Of a DNA stretch of 64,000 bases, positions 7,357 to 41,395 are shown piece after piece; within the stretch, counting starts at the first letter, position 1; every line of letters starts with the position of its first letter. This DNA is from Eubacterium sp. AM49-13BH (GTDB taxonomy: Bacteria > Bacillota_I > Bacilli_A > Erysipelotrichales > Erysipelotrichaceae). A model generated the notes under the pieces. The model was not told where the DNA came from and ran no database searches. It saw only the letters and a list, made by a program, of their open reading frames with translations. The position numbers and the translations under genes are program-made. Where the stretch lies: positions 700 through 64,699 of the forward strand of contig CAVJMM010000002.1 in assembly GCA_963650865.1 (NCBI GenBank), written 5' to 3'.

Positions 7357-9048
7357 ATGAGTTATCAAGAAACATATCAAGAATGGTTAGAACATCTAAC
7401 AGATACATCTTTAAAACAACAATTAGTAGATATTCAAGATGATGAAGTGGAAAAAGAAGATCGATTCTATAAGAATTTATCTTTTGGAACTGCAGGATTG
7501 AGAGGGAAAGTTGGTGCAGGAACAAATCGTATGAACATGTATACGGTTGGTAAGGCAACACAAGGCATTGCGCAATTTATCATCAAACATGGTCAAGAAG
7601 CAATGGATAAAGGTGTTGTGATTGCACATGATCCAAGACATTTTTCTAGAGAGTTTTGTGAATTGGCTGCAGGCATCTTTGCGGCAAATGGAATTCGTGT
7701 ATATGCATTTCCGTCTTTAAGACCTACGCCAGAACTTGCTTTTTTGATTCGTAAACTTGGTACGACTGCAGGGATCAATATTACAGCTTCTCATAATCCA
7801 AAAGAATACAATGGATATAAAGCGTATTGGAATGATGGATGTCAAGTATCGAGTGAAATTGCGGATGGCATGGAAACAGAAATCAATTCTGTTGATATTT
7901 GGAATGGTGTGAAGACTTCTTCTTATGCGGAAGGTGTAAAGGAAGGAAAAATCATTGTTTTGGGTGAAAAAGAAGATCGTGAATATTTAGATAAGATCGA
8001 ATCTTTAGCGATTCATTCGGGTGAGGAAATTGATTTATCGATTCCACTTGTTTATACACCACTTAATGGATGTGGTTCGATTCCATTTAGACAGATGTTG
8101 AATGATCGTGGATTTGATAACTGGAAGATTGTTCCTGAACAAGAACAACCTGATCCTGATTTCACAACAGTTGGTTATCCTAATCCAGAAGATCCAAAAG
8201 CGTTTGCGTTAAGTGAAAAATATGGCAGAGAATTTGGTGCAGAATTATTGATGGCGACAGATCCTGATTCTGATCGATTCGCAATTGAAATTCGTGATCA
8301 TAATGGAAATTATGTACCACTAAATGGAAATCAAACTGGCTATTTACTAGTGAATTATGTTTTAGAAGGACATCAATCTGCAGGTACATTACCTAAAAAA
8401 GGTGCCATGGTAAAATCGATTGTCACTTCAAATTTATCTACAAAGATTGCGAAATCTTATGGTGTAGAAATGTTTGAAACATTGACTGGTTTTAAGAATA
8501 TTTGTGGTAAGATTCCTTATCTTCATGAACATGGTTATACATACTTATTTGGTTATGAAGAAAGTGTTGGATATGCAGGATGTGAAGATATTCGTGATAA
8601 GGATGGAATTTCTGCAGGTATGTTAGTAACAGAAGCTGCGGCTTACTATAGAAAACAAGGAAAGACCTTATGGGATGTTCTACAAGAAATCTATGCAAAG
8701 TATGGATATACTTGTGAAGAAGGCGTCAATATCGTTTTAGAAGGCATTCCTGGTAGAGAAAGAATTGAGCGAATGATGAAGTGGATCAGAAGTGAAAAGC
8801 CAACACAGATTGGAAAGTATCATGTAGATCATAGCGTTGATTATATTGATGGTTATGATGATCTACCTCCACATAACGCATTACGTTTCTATATAGATGA
8901 CGATACATGGTTTGCGATTCGTCCAAGTGGAACAGAACCTAAGATCAAGATGTATTTTTATTCCACAGATCAATCAATGGAGGCTGCAAAACAAAAAAAC
9001 GAAGCAATCAAAACTGCAGTATTAGAAATGATTCATTCTGTGGAATGA
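7357..9048 (+). CDS. Phospho-sugar mutase (alpha-phosphoglucomutase / phosphomannomutase family)
   Basis: Active-site loop TASHNPKEYNGYK, Mg loop ATDPDSDR, sugar-binding GYEESVG and phosphate-binding RPSGTEPKIK. Confidence 0.92.
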   Translation: MSYQETYQEWLEHLTDTSLKQQLVDIQDDEVEKEDRFYKNLSFGTAGLRGKVGAGTNRMNMYTVGKATQGIAQFIIKHGQEAMDKGVVIAHDPRHFSREFCELAAGIFAANGIRVYAFPSLRPTPELAFLIRKLGTTAGINITASHNPKEYNGYKAYWNDGCQVSSEIADGMETEINSVDIWNGVKTSSYAEGVKEGKIIVLGEKEDREYLDKIESLAIHSGEEIDLSIPLVYTPLNGCGSIPFRQMLNDRGFDNWKIVPEQEQPDPDFTTVGYPNPEDPKAFALSEKYGREFGAELLMATDPDSDRFAIEIRDHNGNYVPLNGNQTGYLLVNYVLEGHQSAGTLPKKGAMVKSIVTSNLSTKIAKSYGVEMFETLTGFKNICGKIPYLHEHGYTYLFGYEESVGYAGCEDIRDKDGISAGMLVTEAAAYYRKQGKTLWDVLQEIYAKYGYTCEEGVNIVLEGIPGRERIERMMKWIRSEKPTQIGKYHVDHSVDYIDGYDDLPPHNALRFYIDDDTWFAIRPSGTEPKIKMYFYSTDQSMEAAKQKNEAIKTAVLEMIHSVE

Positions 9049-9857
9049 TTGATCAAAGAGAAGCATATGCTTCTTTTTTTGTTATAATGTTTTGGATGAT
9101 TTGTGTATATACTTTGAAAAATTGGTATTTTGATAAAACAAAAGAAAAATATCGTGTATGGGGAAATATCAGTGGCAATGATAACTTTGAAGATGGACAA
9201 TGGATCCATACTTCTTTTGTAACAAAGCTTGAAGTAGAGTGGGGTGCTTTGCATATCTATACTGAAAACTCTGAATATTTAGCGAAATATGCCGAACATA
9301 ATGCGATAGATAAGAGAGTTTTACGAAGAGCTTTGCGTGATTATCTATGGCCAGATGATGTGCTTGTATTTAATAAAATCAAACAATCAGAATCAAGAAA
9401 ACAAAATACGATTCATAAGGAAGAAACACCAGATGATTATAAAAATTGTGCGATACTTACGTTTTCTTCAGATATTCTAAATCATTTTGTATCGTTAGAA
9501 TTACGGAGTGGAAAGAAGATCTATCGTAGATTAGATTATGATATTCAAAGAGGCATGTTTGAAGATGCATTTGTCTTAAGTGATGCAACGTTGAATTATT
9601 ATTTTCGTTTTTTTCCATATGGAAAGAATGCATATCAATTTGATGAGTGGAAAGGAAAATATACACCTGTATTTATTCGAAATATTGGCAGTGATGTATT
9701 TTATGCTTCTACTGTATTTGGTGATTATGAGATACAACCAAATACAACAGTATTGATTTCACAATCCTATTCCAATGAAAGAATCAATACGACTTTAGAT
9801 GAAACAATCAATAGTAAAACAACAGTCTTAACACATGCTTCTGTTAAGATGAAGTGA
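9045..9857 (+). CDS. Hypothetical protein with N-terminal hydrophobic anchor
   Basis: 270-aa ORF whose ATG overlaps the mutase stop (ATGA). A hydrophobic segment (ASFFVIMFWMICVYTL) lies near the N-terminus. No motif I recognise. The start is uncertain because a hairpin, a T-run and TGtTATAAT sit at 9058-9088. Confidence 0.45.
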   Translation: MIDQREAYASFFVIMFWMICVYTLKNWYFDKTKEKYRVWGNISGNDNFEDGQWIHTSFVTKLEVEWGALHIYTENSEYLAKYAEHNAIDKRVLRRALRDYLWPDDVLVFNKIKQSESRKQNTIHKEETPDDYKNCAILTFSSDILNHFVSLELRSGKKIYRRLDYDIQRGMFEDAFVLSDATLNYYFRFFPYGKNAYQFDEWKGKYTPVFIRNIGSDVFYASTVFGDYEIQPNTTVLISQSYSNERINTTLDETINSKTTVLTHASVKMK

Positions 9858-9868
9858 AAGGAGAAAAG

Positions 9869-10504
9869 ATGAATTATAGAGAATTCTTTCATTTATTAAA
9901 AACAGCTAATAACATCGAAGAGATTAAACAATATCAATCAGAAATTATTCGATTGATACCACAATATGAATCTATGATTCAATATGATCAAAACAATCAT
10001 TACCATCAATATGATTTAGATGATCATTCCTTGCATACCGTTTTAAATCTACCAAGAAATCTAGATGATGATATATTGTATCTAGCTGCTTTGATTCATG
10101 ATATTGGTAAACCAATTGCGAGATGTAAAGGAAAACATGAAGGGGATACTGAAAGTCATTATTATGGTCATCCTGAAATTAGTTATGAGATTACAAGAGA
10201 TTCTATTCTTCCATATATGTTAGAACATGGTGCATCATTAACAGAAGAAGAACAAGAACGTTTATTATATTATGTACTCCATCATGATGATCATATGTCA
10301 TTAAGAATCAAACATTTAAAAGAACATTTAAAGCTTGTTGATTTTGAAACGTTTCAGAAATTGATGTTATTAGAAGTTGCTGATGCTAGAGCACATGTAT
10401 TACTTCCAGTCATCGTGTCTAGAATTGATATTTGTTCACAATGGGCAGGAGCATATGGAAGAGAAAAATATCATGAATTATTACAAGAAAAAAGAGTCAA
10501 CTGA
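9869..10504 (+). CDS. HD domain-containing phosphohydrolase
   Basis: H...HD motif (LAALIHDIGKP) plus downstream HHDDH. AAAGGAG at 9857-9863 supports the ATG at 9869 rather than the GTG at 9854. Confidence 0.7.
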   Translation: MNYREFFHLLKTANNIEEIKQYQSEIIRLIPQYESMIQYDQNNHYHQYDLDDHSLHTVLNLPRNLDDDILYLAALIHDIGKPIARCKGKHEGDTESHYYGHPEISYEITRDSILPYMLEHGASLTEEEQERLLYYVLHHDDHMSLRIKHLKEHLKLVDFETFQKLMLLEVADARAHVLLPVIVSRIDICSQWAGAYGREKYHELLQEKRVN

Positions 10505-11018
10505 ATGACTCTTTTGCTTTGGTGTCTATATCGATATAAATATTTTGATAGTTTGTAAAATCATTTGTTTTAATAGAACGATACATATTTTTAAGTGTAT
10601 CTAATTGTAATACTTGTTTCCAATCTACTAAGTCATCTGTATTACTATATTTTTTACAGATTTCTGAGATTTGTGTTTCTAATGTATTCAATAACAAACT
10701 ATCTCGTTCTCTTTTCGCAAATGCATCCAAATATGTTTCAACAATATCATATGCTTTGATATCTTTTCCTTCTATTTTTAATACGATGGAATCGTATTGA
10801 GAACTATCTTTCCATGCGGAAGAATCAGAATATGCGACGATTTGCCAATCATAGTTTGAATAATCAGAAGATTTACGATCTTGTAAATAAGTATGTGTTG
10901 ATTTAAACACAACATCAAAACCTGTATTATCATATAGACATACATAATTAGATTCACCACATTTTTCCATCATTGCATATCCAATTGGTTTTGGTTTTCG
11001 CACTACTTTTCTTCTCAT
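10497..11018 (-). CDS. Hypothetical protein
   Basis: 173-aa ORF convergent with the HD gene. The 3' ends overlap by 8 nt. No recognisable motif. Confidence 0.4.
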   Translation of the reverse strand: MRRKVVRKPKPIGYAMMEKCGESNYVCLYDNTGFDVVFKSTHTYLQDRKSSDYSNYDWQIVAYSDSSAWKDSSQYDSIVLKIEGKDIKAYDIVETYLDAFAKRERDSLLLNTLETQISEICKKYSNTDDLVDWKQVLQLDTLKNMYRSIKTNDFTNYQNIYIDIDTKAKESFS

Positions 11019-11995: not shown

Positions 11996-12676
11996 ATGAC
12001 AAAATTGAATGAGGAATTCTTAACGATTGTTAAGAAATATGGTGTTGAAAAGAAATATCAAAAGAATGAAATGATTTATCGTACATATGATGATGCGAAT
12101 GATATTTTTGTTGTGCAAAAGGGTAGAATCAGAACATACGCAATAACCAAAGATGGTCAAGAAGTGACTTATGAAATATTAGCAAAAGGAAAGATCTTTG
12201 GAGAAACAAGTTTATTGAATCAAGGGAAAAGACCAGTATATGCAAGTGCAGTTGTAGATACGATCTTATTACAGATATCCAAGAAAGATGTAGAAGAATT
12301 AATTATGCAGTATCCTGCATTTAGTATGGCATTTATTAAAATGATTGCGGAAACGAATGTATATTTATGTGATCGTTTAAGAAATAATCAAGATTATAAT
12401 CGCTATCAAAAAGTAATTTATTTTTTGTTGGATACAACAAAAGAAGATGCAGTGGATAAAGAAATTTCACATGGTGTTTTACCATATACACATGAAGATA
12501 TCGCAAATTGTGTGCAGTTAAATAGAGTTACGGTTTCTAGAGTGTTGAATGAATTAGAAAAGAAGGGATATATTCGAATGAAGTATAAGAAGATACAAGT
12601 TTTAAAGAGAAAAGAATTAGAAGAAGAGTACTTGTCAATAACCCACGGTCCAAGGACCAGTGGGCTTGAGGTGTAA
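11996..12676 (+). CDS. Crp/Fnr family transcriptional regulator, with 3' end running into the inserted element
   Basis: cNMP-binding-like beta-barrel (GRIRTYAITKDGQEVTYEIL...IFGE) and C-terminal HTH (EDIANCVQLNRVTVSRVLNELEKKGYI). The last roughly 12 codons (..ITHGPRTSGLEV*) are read from the GC-rich left-end hairpin of the insertion. Confidence 0.8.
   Translation: MTKLNEEFLTIVKKYGVEKKYQKNEMIYRTYDDANDIFVVQKGRIRTYAITKDGQEVTYEILAKGKIFGETSLLNQGKRPVYASAVVDTILLQISKKDVEELIMQYPAFSMAFIKMIAETNVYLCDRLRNNQDYNRYQKVIYFLLDTTKEDAVDKEISHGVLPYTHEDIANCVQLNRVTVSRVLNELEKKGYIRMKYKKIQVLKRKELEEEYLSITHGPRTSGLEV
12642..12664 (+). repeat. Left-end (LE) subterminal imperfect hairpin
   Basis: CCCACGGTCCAAGGACCAGTGGG has arms CCCACGGTC / GACC(A)GTGGG with one bulged A. 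It matches 14348-14370 except at two positions that face each other at the top of the stem. Confidence 0.7.
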
Positions 12677-12975
12677 ACCTTAAGCTCGGTTGATAAGCCT
12701 CAGTGCCTGTCGACAGGCAGACACTACGTTATCCAAGAATGTCCGCTCCAGCGGACAGGGATAGGTACCAAGGGATACTTCACTAGTCCCTTGCTCTACG
12801 GTATTGCATTAAACATCTCTGAGGGTAGGAGAAGTGTGTAATACATCAAACCTTGGATAACATTGGCGAAGTGAACTACCCGCGTTATGCGGAGAAGCTA
12901 CATCTTTGAATGTAGAAGGCGTAAGCCAGTGCCGAAAGGCACACATAACTACGACAGTAGTAGAAAGGAGGCACC
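12642..12975 (+). ncRNA. Candidate IscB omegaRNA (HEARO-type structured RNA). The 5' guide is expected at or just left of this span.
   Basis: A GC-rich non-coding stretch directly upstream of iscB. It has many perfect local stems: 12704-12719, 12740-12757, 12769-12793, 12880-12892, 12898-12915, and 12929-12942 with a GAAA loop. A 10-bp long-range helix pairs 12728-12737 with 12852-12861. The ORFs here are short and lack an RBS. Confidence 0.65.
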
Positions 12976-12977
12976 AT

Positions 12978-14327
12978 ATGATGGTTGCAGTGTTGAGTTC
13001 TACAGGCATCAGATTGATGCCAATATCCTGCTACAAAGCAAGACGACTACTCAAGAAAGGGAAAGCTGAAATCGTGCAGTACAGACCTTTCACAATTAAA
13101 TTAACTCAACGAAGCACAGGAAATACTCAGCCTATTGAGTATTGCTGCGATACAGGATATCAACATATCGGAATTTCTATCAAATCTGAAAAGCATGAAT
13201 ATGTTGGAATCCAAGTGGATTCTCTCAAGGATGAGAAATCCAAACACAAGGATTGCTTAGTTTACAGACGTACTAGACGCAATCGTAAAAGATACAGAAA
13301 GCCTAGATTCAACAACCGTAAGGCTTCCAAACCAGAAGGATGGTTAGCACCAAGTATCGAGCACAAGAAAGCTATCCATCTGTATTGGATTAAGAAGTAC
13401 ATGGCAGTTATGCCTATTACAAATATTACATTTGAGATGGGTGAATTCGATACACAGTTGCTTAAGGAAATCGAGGAAGGAAAGCCAATTCCTGTTGGCA
13501 CAGATTACCAACATGGTGAACGCTACGGTATTGAAACACTTAGAAGTGCAGTATTTGCACGAGACAACTACACATGCCAGTGTTGTGGTAGTACAAAAGG
13601 ACCGTTTTGTGTACATCATGTAGTACCACGGAGTGAAGGCGGTACAAACAGAATGTCAAACCTAGCTACAGTGTGTACAGGTTGCCATACACCACCAAAT
13701 CACAAATACGGTGGTAAGTTGTGGAAGCTCAAGCAAGATTGGCATCCATTACAGTTTAAAGGTGCAACCTTTATGACTTCTGTTAGATGGCAGATGCTTG
13801 ATGCACTCAAAGAAGAGCTCCATGATGCAAGGATTCATTTGACATACGGCGCTACTACTAAAGGTGCTAGAAGAATCCTACATATGCAGAAGTCACACAT
13901 TAACGATGCGTATTGTATGGGAATGTTTCATCCAAAACATCGCACTCCACACTATCTGTACTCTAAAAAACGTAGAAACAACAGAATTCTCTCTAAGTTC
14001 TACGATGCAAAGTACATCGATAGTAGAGATGGCTCTAAAAAGTCTGGTCAGCAGTTGTTCAATGGTAGAACAAAGAGAAACCACGATTTAGATACCGAAA
14101 ACTTGCATGTATACCGGGCAAAGAAAGTATCTAAAGGTAGAACTTCTGTTAGAAAGAAACACTATCCAATACAACCAGGTGACTGTTTGTATGCAAATGG
14201 TAAATATGTAATCACCAATGGTTGCCATAATAATGGCACCAGGGTCTTATGCAATGGCAAATCCATTGCAGTCAAAAATGTATGCTTGCACAAATATGCA
14301 GGAGGATATACATATGTCAAATTATAA
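12978..14327 (+). CDS. iscB: IscB RNA-guided endonuclease (PLMP, split RuvC, bridge helix, HNH, C-terminal TAM-interacting-like domain), 449 aa
   Basis: AAAGGAGG at 12964-12971 precedes the ATG at 12978. RLMP at residues 12-15. RuvC-I CCDTGYQHIGISI (D58). Arg-rich YRRTRRNRKRYRKPRFNNRK. RuvC-II ITFEMGEFD (E153). HNH CQCCGS..VHHVVPRSEGGTNRMSNLATVCTGCH. RuvC-III KSHINDAYCM (H307, D310). Confidence 0.9.
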   Translation: MMVAVLSSTGIRLMPISCYKARRLLKKGKAEIVQYRPFTIKLTQRSTGNTQPIEYCCDTGYQHIGISIKSEKHEYVGIQVDSLKDEKSKHKDCLVYRRTRRNRKRYRKPRFNNRKASKPEGWLAPSIEHKKAIHLYWIKKYMAVMPITNITFEMGEFDTQLLKEIEEGKPIPVGTDYQHGERYGIETLRSAVFARDNYTCQCCGSTKGPFCVHHVVPRSEGGTNRMSNLATVCTGCHTPPNHKYGGKLWKLKQDWHPLQFKGATFMTSVRWQMLDALKEELHDARIHLTYGATTKGARRILHMQKSHINDAYCMGMFHPKHRTPHYLYSKKRRNNRILSKFYDAKYIDSRDGSKKSGQQLFNGRTKRNHDLDTENLHVYRAKKVSKGRTSVRKKHYPIQPGDCLYANGKYVITNGCHNNGTRVLCNGKSIAVKNVCLHKYAGGYTYVKL

Positions 14328-14347
14328 GAAAGGAGACGGCGTTTCCT

Positions 14348-14370
14348 CCCACGGTCTAAAGACCAGTGGG
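14348..14370 (+). repeat. Right-end (RE) subterminal imperfect hairpin
   Basis: CCCACGGTCTAAAGACCAGTGGG lies 21 nt after the iscB stop. It has the same arms and bulged A as the LE hairpin. C/G in LE is replaced by T/A at the two facing positions. Confidence 0.7.
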
Positions 14371-14397
14371 TTTCCACGCCGAAAGTTTTATGAAAAA

Positions 14398-14417
14398 ATG
14401 GGAACCTGAGTTCCCAT
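14398..14417. terminator. Hairpin terminator at the 3' end of the convergent alpha-galactosidase gene
   Basis: ATGGGAAC-CTGA-GTTCCCAT is a perfect 8-bp stem preceded by AAAAAA on the + strand. It overlaps the stop of the minus-strand gene at 14417-14419. Confidence 0.55.
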
Positions 14418-15988
14418 TAGAGGATGCTTGTATCACAAGTGTATGTATTTGTTTTGCCATCTAGATCATACTGGATAGTGAGTATTTTATCATACATGTT
14501 TGTATGAATATTTGTAGCCGTTGATAAATGACGATAGTGATGGTATTTGTCAATTTGATCAGATGTATAGTTAGATGGATTATCACTTGTTAAGAATACA
14601 CCACCTAATAATGCATCGATCGTAATTAACATTTCTTTTTGTTGTTCTGTTAATTTTAGGTTTTCATCTCTTAAGAAAAATACATCAGGATCAGATAGAT
14701 AAGCTCTTGTATTGATCTGTCTTCTGAAGATTGTATTAGCTAAAGAGTGTTTTGTGGATACGCGTTCTCTATGAAATAAACGCATATACCAAACATCATT
14801 CCAATCTAGTCCTACATCACATCCTACACGATTGTATTCGAAGATACCAAGTGTTGAACAAAATGGAACACCGCAACCTAATATTGGATGATCTTTACAG
14901 AGCTCTTTTAAGAATAGAATTGCCCGTTTCATTTTATGTGCTCTTGATTCGGATTCAGTTCCAAATGGAGCTGCAGCGTATAAGAAATCTAATTTCACAA
15001 GATCAAAATTCCATTCATTAAAGATTTGATCAAAAACATCTTTTAGATATTGGATTACTTCAGGATGATCAATATCTAATGCATAGGCACCATCCCAATT
15101 ACATCCAACAAACCATGGTTCCCCATTAACTTTTAATAACCAATCTGGATGTTCTTTTACAAGTTTGGAATGAACAGACGCAAGAAATGGTGAAACCCAA
15201 ATACCTGCTTTGAAATGTGCTTGATGAATTCGATCCGTTTCATAGCGTAATCCATGAGGAAACTTAGCAGAATCATATTCTAACCAATCCCCCGTGCATG
15301 GTTGCCATCCATCATCGATTTGGAATAAATCATTTTCTTGAAGAATGATTTTACATCCTTCTAAATCTTCTTGGATTGTATCTGTGGATATATTTTCATA
15401 ATGGTTATACCAACTTGAATATCCATATAACTTAGGTCGTGTTTGTTTTGGAATGTTCATTGCGTTGAACCATCCATCAAATACTTCTTGTTCACTGCCA
15501 ATTTGTTCATAAATATCAAAGATTGTATATGTTCCATCAAACGTTACACCTTCACAGTCTTTTTCAATTGTGAGTGTATTATTTTTATAGTTGAAGATTG
15601 TATATCCTAGATCTTCATTGATGGATGCAAGTAAATGATATTTGTTACCTTTTCGAAGATACATGTATGTATATCCATGAAAGATTCCTTTGTGTTTTGG
15701 ATATGCATGAAAATGATAGTCACCATATCGATCAAAATGATATTGATCAATTAATTTTTGAGGGACATGTTGTAGACCTCTGAAAGAATCAGATATTTTC
15801 ATTTCTTTATTGTATGTCCATGTTTGATAACCATTGAAGAATAGATAATCTGTAGTAGAAACTTCTAATGAAGTGGTAGCTTTGATAGATTGAATTGTTC
15901 CGTGGATTTCTTCTGTGATATTTTGAAGCGTATCAGTTGTATATTCAATTGTTTGTATATCTGTTTGAATTTGTATTTTCCAAGTCAT
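14417..15988 (-). CDS. Alpha-galactosidase-like glycoside hydrolase (GH36/melibiase family)
   Basis: FQIDDGWQ motif and KLDF nucleophile-region motif typical of the melibiase fold. The gene sits in an operon with a GPH sugar symporter. Confidence 0.7.
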   Translation of the reverse strand: MTWKIQIQTDIQTIEYTTDTLQNITEEIHGTIQSIKATTSLEVSTTDYLFFNGYQTWTYNKEMKISDSFRGLQHVPQKLIDQYHFDRYGDYHFHAYPKHKGIFHGYTYMYLRKGNKYHLLASINEDLGYTIFNYKNNTLTIEKDCEGVTFDGTYTIFDIYEQIGSEQEVFDGWFNAMNIPKQTRPKLYGYSSWYNHYENISTDTIQEDLEGCKIILQENDLFQIDDGWQPCTGDWLEYDSAKFPHGLRYETDRIHQAHFKAGIWVSPFLASVHSKLVKEHPDWLLKVNGEPWFVGCNWDGAYALDIDHPEVIQYLKDVFDQIFNEWNFDLVKLDFLYAAAPFGTESESRAHKMKRAILFLKELCKDHPILGCGVPFCSTLGIFEYNRVGCDVGLDWNDVWYMRLFHRERVSTKHSLANTIFRRQINTRAYLSDPDVFFLRDENLKLTEQQKEMLITIDALLGGVFLTSDNPSNYTSDQIDKYHHYRHLSTATNIHTNMYDKILTIQYDLDGKTNTYTCDTSIL

Positions 15989-20368: not shown

Positions 20369-21073
20369 ATGAGTGAAATCAATGAAATTATTAAATTTCT
20401 ACCATGTTCTATTGATAATGTTTGTGATGTAGAAGAGTGGTTAGATGTTTTAAGTACAGAAGGATATTTGTTGAAAAGCCAAACAATCAATTTGTTGGCT
20501 GGGATTTTTTATTTGGAACCAGATAAAAGAAGATACTATCATCATGTTGTCGTAGGTGAAAAAACAAAGAATAAAGATATTTTTGAAAATGATCGAATTA
20601 CAGTGGAGAAATATACGAGTCAAGGATTGGAATTTTTAGGCAAGACTTGTGGATATTATTTCTTTCGAACAGATCAGCGTTCATTGATTGAAAGTGTGAG
20701 TGATCCAACAGAAAAGAAAAGAAAATTACATTTGATTTATCATGGAATTATGACAATCATCATGATTTGTATTTTCTCGGCAGTTTTATTTCATGGATTG
20801 AATATTTATAATTACAACACATTCGCAAATATCTTGGCAGAAGTGATGGGACTATTATTAGTAGTTATCATATTAGTGCTTGGTGTAGAAGTTTATGGTG
20901 CGTTTGAAGATTTGAAATGTCCAGATAAAATGAAACCGACATATCAAAGAAAACTGCATAAACAAACACCGGAATTAGAACTAACGTATAAGGCAATGTT
21001 ATTGACATTGATTCTATCGTTTGTAGTTTTGATTTTGATGCAAGATATGATGCTTGGACAAATGATTAAGTAG
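20369..21073 (+). CDS. Membrane protein, possibly DUF2812-like
   Basis: Soluble N-terminal domain followed by several TM helices. GAGGTG RBS. Family assignment is tentative (by eye only). Confidence 0.4.
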   Translation: MSEINEIIKFLPCSIDNVCDVEEWLDVLSTEGYLLKSQTINLLAGIFYLEPDKRRYYHHVVVGEKTKNKDIFENDRITVEKYTSQGLEFLGKTCGYYFFRTDQRSLIESVSDPTEKKRKLHLIYHGIMTIIMICIFSAVLFHGLNIYNYNTFANILAEVMGLLLVVIILVLGVEVYGAFEDLKCPDKMKPTYQRKLHKQTPELELTYKAMLLTLILSFVVLILMQDMMLGQMIK

Positions 21074-31806: not shown

Positions 31807-32418
31807 ATGAAAAAATTTATAACATGTCTTTTAACAACTGTTTTATTGACGGGGTGTGCTTCTACTGCGAGTACAAGTTCAACAAATAGTAGTGAAACTT
31901 CTACAACAGAACAAGTAACAATTACAAATGATGTTGAATTAGCAGCTGTTAAAACAAATTTAAGTGGTTATAAATGGGTTGGAGATGAAATTGGTGACTT
32001 CGAAGAAACTTCTTTGAAGGAAACAATTCGTTTATTTGATGAGAAAGGCAGTGCAGTTGTTTATTATGGATATGTAGGATGTCCATGGTGTGAAAGAGCA
32101 TTGCCGGAATTAAACAAAGTTGCGTTAAAAACAGGTATCAAAATCTATTATGTAGATGCTTCTGTTTCACCAGCATCCGAGGATTATCAAAGTTTAACAG
32201 GATATTTGGGAGATGCTTTGAGTACAGATGAAGAAACTGGTGAAAAAGAGATGTATGTTCCATTTGTTGTGGGAATTAAAAATGGAGAAGTTGTTGGCAG
32301 TCACACAGCTTTGATTGATGGATTTGAAATTAAAGATGATTCTTCTCAAATGAGTGATTCTCAAAAACAAGAACTACAAGATATTTATACAGATATCATT
32401 GATAAAGTTGCAGATTAA
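31807..32418 (+). CDS. Thioredoxin-fold lipoprotein
   Basis: Lipobox LLTGCAS, a Ser/Thr-rich linker and a CxxC motif in YVGCPWCERALPEL. Confidence 0.5.
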   Translation: MKKFITCLLTTVLLTGCASTASTSSTNSSETSTTEQVTITNDVELAAVKTNLSGYKWVGDEIGDFEETSLKETIRLFDEKGSAVVYYGYVGCPWCERALPELNKVALKTGIKIYYVDASVSPASEDYQSLTGYLGDALSTDEETGEKEMYVPFVVGIKNGEVVGSHTALIDGFEIKDDSSQMSDSQKQELQDIYTDIIDKVAD

Positions 32419-36095: not shown

Positions 36096-36168
36096 TGGAG
36101 CTAAGGGGAATCGAACCCCTGACCCCCTGCTTGCAAAGCAGGTGCTCTCCCAGCTGAGCTATAACCCC
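36096..36168 (-). tRNA. tRNA-Ala (anticodon UGC), CCA not encoded
   Basis: The reverse complement reads GGGGTTATAGCTCAGCTGGGAGAGCACCTGCTTTGCAAGCAGGGGGTCAGGGGTTCGATTCCCCTTAGCTCCA. It has a G3:U70 pair, anticodon loop TTTGCAA and T-loop GGTTCGATTCC. Confidence 0.92.
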
Positions 36169-36190
36169 AGGATACATTTTTGAGAATAAA

Positions 36191-36267
<77 letters not shown>

Positions 36268-39656: not shown

Positions 39657-40802
39657 ATGAAATGTAAAAGATGTTTAAATGAAGATGAAAGTTGGTTTTA
39701 TAAAGGAAGTAAAGGTTGGTATTGTAGAAAATGTATTTCGTTTGGGAGAGTATTAATAGAAGAAGATATGAAAAGTGTTGGTCTATCACAGAATGAAGAT
39801 TGTGGTGAGTATACATTGAAATATCCTCTAACAAACGATCAGAAAATCATCGCAGCGAAATTGTTGCATCATATTCCAACAAGTGATGTTTTGGTACAAG
39901 CTGTTTGTGGAGCTGGGAAAACAGAAATTGTGATTCCTACGATATCGGAATATTTGTTGCATCAAAAAAAGGTATGTTTTGCGATATCAAGAAGGCAAGT
40001 TGTATTAGAAGTGGCAGAAAGATTACAAAGTTACTTCAAAAATATGAAAGTAATTGCGGTGTGTGGTGGTCATACAGATGTATTAGATGGTGATTTAATT
40101 GTGTGTACTTGTCATCAATTATATCGATATTATCATGCATTTGATTTACTGATTTTAGATGAAATTGACGCTTTTCCCTTTGCTGGAAACGATGTGCTAT
40201 CGCAAATTGCGAGGACTTCTTGTGTAGGAAATATCATCTATTTAACGGCTACTCCAGATGAAAAATTGAAACAAAGATGTGAAGAAGGAACACTTGTTTG
40301 TTTGAAATTGAATCGAAGACCACATGGCAAACCAATTCCAGTTCCACGTAAAAAGATTGCACCTTTATGGATGGATTATCTCTTTTTGCATCGATGGATC
40401 AAGGAACATGCAATGCATCCAAGAATCATTTTTATTCCGACAATTCGCATGAGTGAAATCGTAGGAAAGATTTTTCGGCTGTTTATGAAATGCTATGTCT
40501 GCACCAGCAAAACAGAAAATCGAGATGAAGTGATTGAACAATTTCGAAAAGAAAAGAATGGGGTTATGTTTTCTACAACAGTATTAGAAAGAGGTGTGAC
40601 ATTTCCACATACAGATGTATGTGTATTTCAAGCAAATCATCCAGTATTTAATGAAGCAAGTTTAATTCAAATGGCTGGAAGAGCAGGCAGAGATTTTTAT
40701 GATCCAACAGGAGATGTTTTATTTCTTTGTGATGAGAAAAGTGAACGCGTTGATCAATGTATTTCATCCATTGAGGAGGCAAATCTGTCATGCGGTGTTT
40801 GA
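39657..40802 (+). CDS. comFA: ComFA-like DEAD/DEAH-box helicase (competence protein ComFA)
   Basis: N-terminal zinc-ribbon (CKRC...CRKC), Walker A VCGAGKTE, DEID box and motif VI QMAGRAGR. It is followed by comFC with overlapping ends. Confidence 0.8.
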   Translation: MKCKRCLNEDESWFYKGSKGWYCRKCISFGRVLIEEDMKSVGLSQNEDCGEYTLKYPLTNDQKIIAAKLLHHIPTSDVLVQAVCGAGKTEIVIPTISEYLLHQKKVCFAISRRQVVLEVAERLQSYFKNMKVIAVCGGHTDVLDGDLIVCTCHQLYRYYHAFDLLILDEIDAFPFAGNDVLSQIARTSCVGNIIYLTATPDEKLKQRCEEGTLVCLKLNRRPHGKPIPVPRKKIAPLWMDYLFLHRWIKEHAMHPRIIFIPTIRMSEIVGKIFRLFMKCYVCTSKTENRDEVIEQFRKEKNGVMFSTTVLERGVTFPHTDVCVFQANHPVFNEASLIQMAGRAGRDFYDPTGDVLFLCDEKSERVDQCISSIEEANLSCGV

Positions 40803-41395
40803 TGTGTGGAAAAGAACTTGGGGAAAGTTCTTTGAGAGATGTTGTAATTGGGGATGATCCATTGTGTAGTACTTGTAGAAGACAATGGGAAAAGAAGCGT
40901 ATCAAATTTGAATTGGATGGGATAAAAGGAGAAGCGGATTATGTATATAATGATGCTTTTTCTTCTTCTTTAATTCAATTTAAAGAATGTGGAGATGAAG
41001 CGTTAAAAGATATCTTTTTATATGAAGTGAAAAATAGAATCAAAAGAAAATATAGAGGATATACATTGTGTTGTATGCCAAGTTCTATTGAAAAGATGAA
41101 TAGTAGAGGTTTTTCTCATCTACAAGAAATGTTTTCGTGTTTAAATATGAAAATGTTAGATCCTTTTGTGAAAAATACAAACGTCTCGCAAAAAGAAAAT
41201 CCAGGTTATTTAAGAAAGAATATGAGTCATGAAATACAGTTGAAAAATGGCGTTGTTTTGCCGAAAAAGATATTGCTTGTAGATGATACGATCACAAGTG
41301 GGGCAACTTTAAAAGGTGCAATTGCGTGCATAGAAAGAAAACAACATCAAATCAGAATTTATTGTGTGAGTGCGAACCAATCTTGGTTAAAGTAG
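40790..41395 (+). CDS. comFC: ComFC-like phosphoribosyltransferase-fold protein
   Basis: N-terminal CxxC..CxxC zinc motif (CLMCGKE...CSTC) and a C-terminal PRPP loop ILLVDDTITSGATL. Confidence 0.8.
   Translation: MRCLMCGKELGESSLRDVVIGDDPLCSTCRRQWEKKRIKFELDGIKGEADYVYNDAFSSSLIQFKECGDEALKDIFLYEVKNRIKRKYRGYTLCCMPSSIEKMNSRGFSHLQEMFSCLNMKMLDPFVKNTNVSQKENPGYLRKNMSHEIQLKNGVVLPKKILLVDDTITSGATLKGAIACIERKQHQIRIYCVSANQSWLK

Follow-up and report, generated by a model that had tools for sequence, protein, structure and literature searches.

A probable non-autonomous IS200/IS605-family insertion sequence of the IscB type at the 3′ end of a crp-like gene in Eubacterium sp. AM49-13BH

The stretch of DNA analysed here, hereafter called the window, comprises 64,000 nucleotides from Eubacterium sp. 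AM49-13BH (Erysipelotrichaceae), namely positions 700 to 64,699 of contig CAVJMM010000002.1 in assembly GCA_963650865.1. The block at positions 12634-14389 of the window is best explained as a non-autonomous insertion sequence of the IS200/IS605 family and of the IscB type (OMEGA, “ISC”), in which a structured omegaRNA is followed by the gene of IscB, a nuclease of the transposon-encoded group from which Cas9 descends, and we put the probability of this explanation at about 0.88. The features of the element and its junctions are listed in Table 1.

The limits of the inserted block were derived from a comparison of empty and occupied alleles. A search with the first 213 residues of the crp-like open reading frame (ORF) of the window returned native 213-aa Crp proteins with 99%, 82% and 80% identity, and in their contigs the crp gene is followed about 22 nt later by a convergent melibiase gene, with nothing in between. 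The empty site of the same species reads ...GAAGAAGAGT(A/T/G)CTT^ATGAAAAAATGGGAACC..., where the caret marks the junction, and the occupied site of the window reads ...GAAGAAGAGTACTT^GTCAATAACCCACGG ... GGGTTTCCACGCCGAAAGTTTT^ATGAAAAAATGGGAACC, or, in short, ...GAGT(A/T/G)CTT^ATGAAA... versus ...CTT^GTCAAT...GTTTT^ATGAAA. The comparison therefore gives an inserted block of 1,756 bp and no target-site duplication, as is typical of IS200/IS605 insertions. This pair of alleles alone leaves a 2-nt (TT) ambiguity in the ends, which is removed by the ends of sister copies from other genomes (n = 8): the element opens with GTCAA in all of them, the preceding base varies (t, t, t, t, a, a, g), and ATGAA always comes next after its other end, hence the ends at 12634 and 14389. 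The similarity between the eight leaders likewise starts abruptly at GTCAA (12634) and runs to the start codon, with all the flanks being different.

The GC content of the element is 42.0% versus 33.7% in the rest of the window (0.38-0.47 over positions 12550-14500, about 0.30 in the flanks on either side). A preliminary description of this DNA, made from the sequence alone, had correctly pointed to a GC-richer block but had drawn its limits at 12642-14370, inside the true ends. It had also located the block between two host genes; in fact the block interrupts the crp-like gene within its final sense codon (TT^A), and the TGA stop is replaced. The native 213-aa alleles end in EEEYL before the stop, and the Crp-like protein of the window has 226 aa with the element-encoded tail SITHGPRTSGLEV.

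The same insertion is present at the same site in assembly GCA_963637595.1 (locus L040, reached through P0131, a member of the IscB protein cluster), with 99.5% identity over 9.3 kb, and a third occupied sequence, Logan contig L001, ends within the right hairpin. The site is vacant in twelve other contigs of this species, which are 98-99.4% identical, and in a sister species as well. The insertion is thus polymorphic within the species, and the empty-site comparison proposed in the preliminary description, which had allowed for a block uninterrupted in all relatives, has turned up vacant alleles instead. Besides this presence/absence polymorphism, mobility is indicated by related copies (L015 and L041) located at other sites in other genomes. 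On the minus strand the element sits immediately 3′ of TTCAT, and ATGAA(A/T) directly follows the element at all six independent insertions with these ends (the window, L015, L041, L011, L009 and L018).

Table 1. Coordinates of the element and adjoining features (positions of the window).
Feature	Position	Strand	Description
crp/Fnr-family regulator gene	11996-12676	+	Last 42 nt (12635-12676) are element sequence; Pfam cNMP_binding, HTH_Crp_2 and Crp
Predicted guide-encoding flank TAGAAGAAGAGTACTT	12618-12633	+	Host crp sequence directly 5′ of the element; 16-nt length assumed from OgeuIscB
Whole inserted element	12634-14389	+	1,756 bp; from occupied versus empty alleles, sister-copy ends and GC content
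omegaRNA scaffold core (HEARO)	12634-12881	+	Rfam RF02033, 126.4 bits versus gathering score 83, E = 8.7e-26, model positions 1-211 of 211
Subterminal hairpin CCCACGGTCCAAGGACCAGTGGG	12642-12664	+	Right end in the TnpA sense; first omegaRNA stem-loop, HEARO model positions 9-32
3′ extension of the leader/omegaRNA past the Rfam model	12882-12964	+	Conserved hairpins upstream of the ribosome binding site; from folding and conservation in 8 copies
Ribosome binding site AAGGAGG	12965-12971	+	6 nt before the iscB ATG; read directly; invariant in 8 copies
iscB	12978-14327	+	449 aa; RLMP (PLMP-type) N-terminal domain, split RuvC, arginine-rich bridge helix, HNH, C-terminal TAM-interaction region
Left-end structure (TnpA sense)	14337-14381	+	Hairpin 14348-14370 (CCCACGGTCTAAAGACCAGTGGG) inside an outer 6-bp stem
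Host target motif ATGAAA	14390-14395	+	TTCAT on the minus strand; TnpA target site and predicted IscB TAM; overlaps the native crp stop TGA
Intrinsic terminator of the convergent melibiase gene (14417-15988)	14397-14418	-	Host sequence marking the host side of the junction; unchanged in empty-site alleles

The element is bounded by two 23-nt imperfect hairpins in direct orientation, which had already been noticed in the preliminary description. They lie in a 26-nt direct repeat (12642-12667 and 14348-14373) with 88% identity, and their arms follow the pattern CCCACGGTC-N4-GACCAGTGGG, found in only two places of the 64-kb window and in none of 100 shuffled sequences. Both hairpins are subterminal, 8 nt (left) and 19 nt (right) inside the element ends, as expected for the family. 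The outer stem around the second one is formed by CGGCGT (14337-14342) and ACGCCG (14376-14381), with the foot of the inner hairpin (14370) 19 nt from the end. Related lineages each have a hairpin sequence of their own, with the left and right hairpins matching each other, i.e., the two co-vary. According to Meers et al. 2023 (bioRxiv 10.1101/2023.03.14.532601), the side of an IscB element that bears the omegaRNA is its right end (RE) in the transposon sense. The minus strand of the window would then be the strand active in transposition, with the layout TTCAT ^ 19 nt - hairpin ... hairpin - TTATTGAC ^.

In L015 a compensatory change (TGGCGT/ACGCCA) preserves the outer stem, whose equivalents in other IscB lineages are GTGGC/GCCAC and GGCGC/GCGCC; the stem could serve either as a DNA structure for TnpA or as an RNA structure at the 3′ end of the iscB message. 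Read on the transposase strand, the right end closes with TTGA-C^, and these bases could pair with a TCAA just 5′ of the RE hairpin (12634-12641 and 12665-12671); at the left end, TTC from the target TTCAT could pair in the same register with a GAA just 5′ of the hairpin there (14371-14394). This complementarity between cleavage sites and hairpin flanks did not carry over cleanly to the L030 lineage. In IS608, the cleavage sites are recognised by internal guide bases, a resemblance mentioned here only as an aside.

The hairpins also bear on the idea of a pure homing-endonuclease gene, spreading by IscB cleavage and recombination with no transposase involved, in which the hairpins would be RNA structure only. 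The left hairpin is indeed part of the omegaRNA fold, and only one site is occupied in this species. Against this, a second copy of the hairpin lies past the iscB gene, where it is not part of the omegaRNA, and from lineage to lineage the two hairpins change together; the six unrelated insertion sites have nothing in common but the pentanucleotide ATGAA, and the same ends bound an IS605 element encoding TnpA (see below). Since all four of these are hallmarks of integration by a Y1 transposase, a pure homing gene is quite improbable, and the transposon interpretation is preferred.

On its sequence, the 449-aa protein is IscB, an RNA-guided nuclease, with all the defining features that can be checked in silico being present; proteins of this kind have about 400-500 aa, with HNH inserted in a split RuvC domain and no REC lobe. 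The PLMP, split-RuvC, bridge-helix and HNH motifs reported for this ORF in the preliminary description agree with the database matches: Pfam gave RRXRR (E = 3.5e-45) and HNH, and the NCBIfam equivalog “RNA-guided endonuclease IscB” (guided_IscB) scored 293.9 bits with a cut-off of 175. The best sequence matches in PDB are IscB chains (E from 5e-31 to 7e-29), to which the D/E/H/D residues of RuvC and the HNH residues can be aligned. These catalytic residues are D58 (RuvC-I), E153 in ITFEMGEF (RuvC-II), H213/H214...N228...H237 (HNH) and H307xxD310 (RuvC-III), and they are invariant in 30 homologues. The AlphaFold2 model (mean predicted local distance difference test score, pLDDT, 76.4; predicted template modelling score, pTM, 0.64) has IscB-omegaRNA-target DNA complexes as its best fold matches (8csz_D, E = 2.8e-26, probability 1.00), followed by IsrB and then by small Cas9s. 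Neither the lack of an IscB match nor the lack of a RuvC fold, both considered beforehand as grounds for giving up the assignment, was observed. More than 4,600 homologues at E ≤ 1e-30 are present in the protein collection searched, including an NCBI entry with 100% identity; an exact look-up of the protein returned nothing on record, though a 100%-identical cluster representative exists. The ratio of nonsynonymous to synonymous substitution rates (dN/dS) is 0.106-0.111 relative to the copies L015 and L041, which are 80% identical in DNA, so iscB is under purifying selection. By analogy with characterised IscB proteins, the predicted activity is RNA-guided cleavage of double-stranded DNA dependent on a target-adjacent motif (TAM).

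Among the closest known systems are the IscB-omegaRNA (OMEGA) systems, e.g., that of OgeuIscB (PDB 7XHT, 7UTN, 8CSZ), with which the protein shares the domain order PLMP, RuvC-I, bridge helix, RuvC-II, HNH, RuvC-III and C-terminal TAM-interaction domain, as well as aligned catalytic residues, the best fold match, an omegaRNA/HEARO directly upstream on the same strand and a flank that fits the TAM. With 449 aa it is shorter than OgeuIscB (496 aa), and the structural alignment of the two gives an identity of only about 20%. Its leader, at 344 nt, exceeds that of OgeuIscB and contains hairpins inserted in particular lineages, and the activity, TAM and guide length are predicted here. IsrB (PDB 8DMB) has the same PLMP, RuvC and bridge-helix core and an omegaRNA, but it is a nickase that lacks HNH, and since the present protein retains an HNH domain whose motifs are intact, this identity was ruled out. 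A plain HNH homing endonuclease was also considered and rejected. A remnant or minimal type II CRISPR-Cas9 locus might be suggested by the distant fold and sequence similarity to small Cas9s, but the best matches are IscB and not Cas9, the RNA is HEARO, and with no spaced repeats, no cas1 or cas2 among the 50 ORFs of at least 100 aa and only 449 aa without a REC lobe, this identity is refuted and hardly deserves further credence.

The non-coding leader upstream of iscB is 344 nt long (12634-12977) and contains no long ORF. The preliminary description had taken it to be about 330 nt; its self-complementary nature is supported by a folding z-score of -7.3 versus shuffled controls. The covariance-model search proposed there gave a match to the complete HEARO model well above the gathering score, starting at the first base of the element. 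HEARO was found upstream of iscB in 16 of the 19 related metagenome loci, as well as in L015, with the other three loci lacking intact upstream sequence. In the eight aligned leaders, RNAalifold predicted 68 pairs, 23 of which show compensatory double changes. The compensatory changes extend into the 3′ extension (alignment columns 290/337, 347/373 and 378-380/385-387), which is consistent with the observation of Meers et al. 2023 that RF02033 does not include downstream structural elements. Both the covariance-model match and the conservation among homologous loci, whose absence would have been a reason for doubt, are thus in evidence, and HEARO directly upstream of an IscB protein on the same strand is the IscB/omegaRNA (OMEGA) architecture that had been proposed from the letters.

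Compared with HEARO as defined by RF02033, with which the leader shares the full-length match followed by an HNH-endonuclease ORF, there are two differences, namely an extra hairpin at 12739-12760 and a conserved structured stretch of about 85 nt past the 3′ end of the model. The extra hairpin (GTCCGCT..AGCGGAC) interrupts the HEARO core where the Rfam consensus has none, and it was found only in the window, L040 and L015. The L015 leader has compensatory differences in this hairpin and a further insertion of about 60 nt in the 3′ extension, and the omegaRNA appears to tolerate lineage-specific stem insertions. RNAalifold also pairs an invariant GCCU (12697-12700) with AGGC (12969-12972) in the ribosome binding site of iscB, and in the Rfam model the same GCC-containing segment takes part in a pseudoknot with UUGGC at about 12867-12871. 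The pairing with the ribosome binding site, which shows no covariation, might be an alternative to the pseudoknot and so couple the omegaRNA structure to iscB translation.

It may be asked whether the locus is a domesticated or decaying copy, that is, one with an inactive nuclease or one co-opted by the host, e.g., modulating the crp-like regulator through the 13-aa tail or a long structured 3′ untranslated region. The insertion does alter the C-terminus of the Crp-like protein, and iscB would join the crp transcript. However, the catalytic residues are all intact, dN/dS is about 0.11 across mobile copies, and the omegaRNA matches the full model. Furthermore, the insertion is absent in 12 of the 12 recovered same-species empty-site contigs and is consequently not a fixed host feature. 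All this makes domestication or decay very unlikely, and an intact IscB-type insertion sequence remains the favoured interpretation.

No Y1 TnpA, TnpB, Cas1 or Cas2 was found with Pfam among the 50 ORFs of at least 100 aa in the window, a scan that leaves out Cas2-sized ORFs below 100 aa; these ORFs are ordinary chromosomal genes, e.g., those for SecA, PrfB, BipA, Lgt and Opp. Neither did tblastn with the TnpA and TnpB of locus L011 give a match in the window, nor were any CRISPR-like spaced repeats detected there, which is in line with the absence of a CRISPR array, cas1/cas2 and Y1 TnpA stated in the preliminary description. With no TnpA in the window, the element is non-autonomous.

Possible partners were found by scanning species-representative genomes for the hairpin pattern. 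The scan returned another complete IscB element, L015 (84% identical in amino acids), and a locus with the same ends (35 nt at 94% and 53 nt at 92%) and a different cargo, L011. The latter, at positions 703-2633, is an IS605-type element in the Lachnospiraceae metagenome-assembled genome (MAG) CAVKTV01, and the same ends also occur in L009, L013, L014 and L017-L019. Its cargo consists of TnpB (414 aa, opposite strand; NCBIfam guided_TnpB, 205 bits) and Y1 TnpA (Pfam Y1_Tnp, 117 bits; NCBIfam transpos_IS200). Several scan matches are ends of L011-type elements at contig breaks, and since so many matches lie at contig ends, the L011-type element is suggested to be multicopy. The matches in Streptomyces, Anaerolineae, Gemmatimonadaceae and Lentisphaeria are unrelated chance matches and were disregarded. 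A hairpin scan of viral contigs gave no matches and hence no sign of phage carriage.

The arrangement resembles ISGst of Geobacillus stearothermophilus, in which elements of the IscB type and of the TnpA/TnpB type share ends and a transposase (Meers et al. 2023). Like the window element, ISGst is a non-autonomous IS605-family element with an RE-bounded omegaRNA, the TAM TTCAT, common ends between its IscB-type and TnpA/TnpB-type versions and a co-oriented upstream gene; it differs in that the host of the window is a low-GC, uncultured gut-type bacterium with a single visible copy, the TnpA-bearing partner having been found only in other MAGs. From the ISC transposons of Kapitonov, Makarova & Koonin 2016 (PMC4810608), which are non-autonomous IS200/IS605 elements encoding a Cas9 homologue without CRISPR/cas, there is no difference of substance, and the window element is an instance of that group.

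The following mechanism is proposed. A Y1 (HUH) TnpA acting in trans would move the element as single-stranded DNA (“peel and paste”), with the minus strand being active. Transcription from the crp-like gene would read into the element and supply the 5′ guide of the omegaRNA. The IscB-omegaRNA complex would then recognise a vacant site, TAGAAGAAGAGTACTT followed by the TAM ATGAAA, with HNH cutting one strand and RuvC the other, and homologous recombination with an occupied copy would restore the element at the cut site. The nuclease would accordingly serve retention and homing of the element rather than host defence. The occupied site would be spared because the guide match there is followed by GTCA, with C at the first R position, and not by a TAM. 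The sequence ATGAAA at the vacant site fits both the natural TAM of the lineage and the TAM of OgeuIscB, NNRR / NWRRNA (PMC9640706); the TAM of the Geobacillus IscB/TnpB element (GstIscB) is TTCAT (Meers et al. 2023).

The guide of IscB elements lies outside the transposon boundary (Meers et al. 2023) and, being 5′ of the scaffold, must be transcribed from the flank. As IscB needs a guide of about 16 nt (Kato et al., PMC9640706), we infer by analogy that the guide would be the last ~16 nt of crp, TAGAAGAAGAGTACTT. The crp and iscB genes are co-oriented, with no terminator between them, and the upstream gene is co-oriented in all four other loci where an upstream gene is present, as was reported family-wide (Meers et al. 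2023). In L041 (440-473), the upstream gene ends in a hairpin and T-run resembling an intrinsic terminator, and the element comes directly after them (GAGTAGgaggaCTACTCATTTTTTT^GTCAAC), so the guide there would correspond to the terminator sequence and its transcription would need read-through of the terminator.

Several points weigh against the proposed interpretation and its mechanism. No cognate TnpA was found in the 64 kb, so present-day mobility can only be presumed, and the window shows no more than a single copy of the element. The L011 element belongs to a different MAG and its TnpA frame stops after the first codon, so this TnpA may be a pseudogene or affected by an assembly error. 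A scan for sigma-70-like promoters upstream of the omegaRNA, inside crp, gave 7 sites versus 10.1 expected by chance; the promoter signal is not above chance, and guide transcription therefore rests on read-through from crp. Cleavage, the omegaRNA ends and transcription are predicted by analogy with the IscB family, and the guide-length and mismatch rules are borrowed from OgeuIscB, about 20% identical in structural alignment.

These points leave room for a stranded element, in which IscB and the omegaRNA are intact but the genome has no compatible TnpA, so that the insertion would no longer transpose and would be passed on only vertically, though cleavage of vacant alleles by IscB following recombination might help to maintain it. 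This differs from the proposed reading only in present-day mobility. It agrees with the lack of TnpA and TnpB in the 64 kb, with the single copy in the window, with the same site being occupied in both assemblies, and with the scan of species representatives, which returned no genome of this species with these hairpins, the window's own genome included. On the other hand, the absence of TnpA is known for the 64-kb window only, in gut MAGs of low GC content belonging to the same accession series (CAV...) the same ends flank an IS605 element with TnpA and TnpB, the contigs breaking at these ends suggest multicopy elements in those MAGs, and a related contig of this species breaks inside the right hairpin. 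A stranded element is thus a possibility worth keeping in mind, and an insertion sequence mobilised in trans is preferred.

The vacant alleles offer a further line of observation on the predicted target. The alignment included 14 strain-level sequences, two occupied (the window and L040) and 12 empty (L002 and L045-L055), and had 3,642 columns after the element was removed. It contains 132 variable sites, the sole tri-allelic one being the fourth base upstream of the junction and TAM, inside the predicted target (12618-12633): A is found in both occupied sequences and three empty ones, G in eight empty ones and T in one. The sequences with G group essentially in a single clade that does not include the one with T, so position 4 has been hit at least twice independently. 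The only other variable base of the target is position 15, which is A in the occupied alleles and G in all the empty ones. In a collection of 15 billion proteins, the 90%-identity cluster of the Crp-like protein comprises six alleles with six amino-acid differences, three of which fall in the last three residues (Y212F, Y212C and E211D), and the allele ending in EEDYL implies a change at target position 6. The natural target variants are GTGCTT, GTTCTT and GATTACTT/GACTACTT, besides the one with G at position 15. All the changes are nonsynonymous and affect the final residues of the Crp-like protein, of which Tyr212 is conserved in the three sister-species proteins.

For OgeuIscB, single mismatches at positions 1-14 abolish cleavage and those at positions 15-16 are tolerated (PMC9640706). 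If the same held here, many vacant alleles might be naturally resistant to the element's own guide, i.e., homing-resistant alleles, a reading that is put forward very tentatively and is in our opinion rather doubtful. The loci were retrieved through distinct Crp protein alleles and the comparison was made post hoc; constraint on C-terminal tails is often weak, and the mismatch rules come from a distant homologue.

As for the rest of the window, there are two tandem tRNA genes at 36096-36267 on the minus strand (Rfam tRNA, 68.9 and 66.8 bits), which are unrelated to the element, and five ORFs of 173-270 aa without a Pfam family at E ≤ 1e-5 (9045-9857, 10497-11018, 20369-21073, 31807-32418 and 40790-41395), the first two of which have conserved synteny in related contigs.

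IscB/omegaRNA elements have been known since 2016-2021 and solved structures exist, so the element itself, an uncharacterised individual member of a well-known kind already named by automated annotation (NCBI pipeline), adds little. It is nevertheless a clean natural example: the ends, the target motif and the predicted guide flank are defined, the species has vacant as well as occupied alleles, and there is a candidate family of TnpA acting in trans. It is a ready substrate for activity tests or for use as a compact 449-aa nuclease. The clustering of substitutions in the seed of the predicted target among vacant alleles is a more interesting lead than the element: if the resistance reading is true, it would be a population-level footprint of IscB homing or retention and of host escape, comparable to gene-drive resistance alleles, and would support, with data from the field, both target-site escape and the model of homing and retention proposed by Meers et al.

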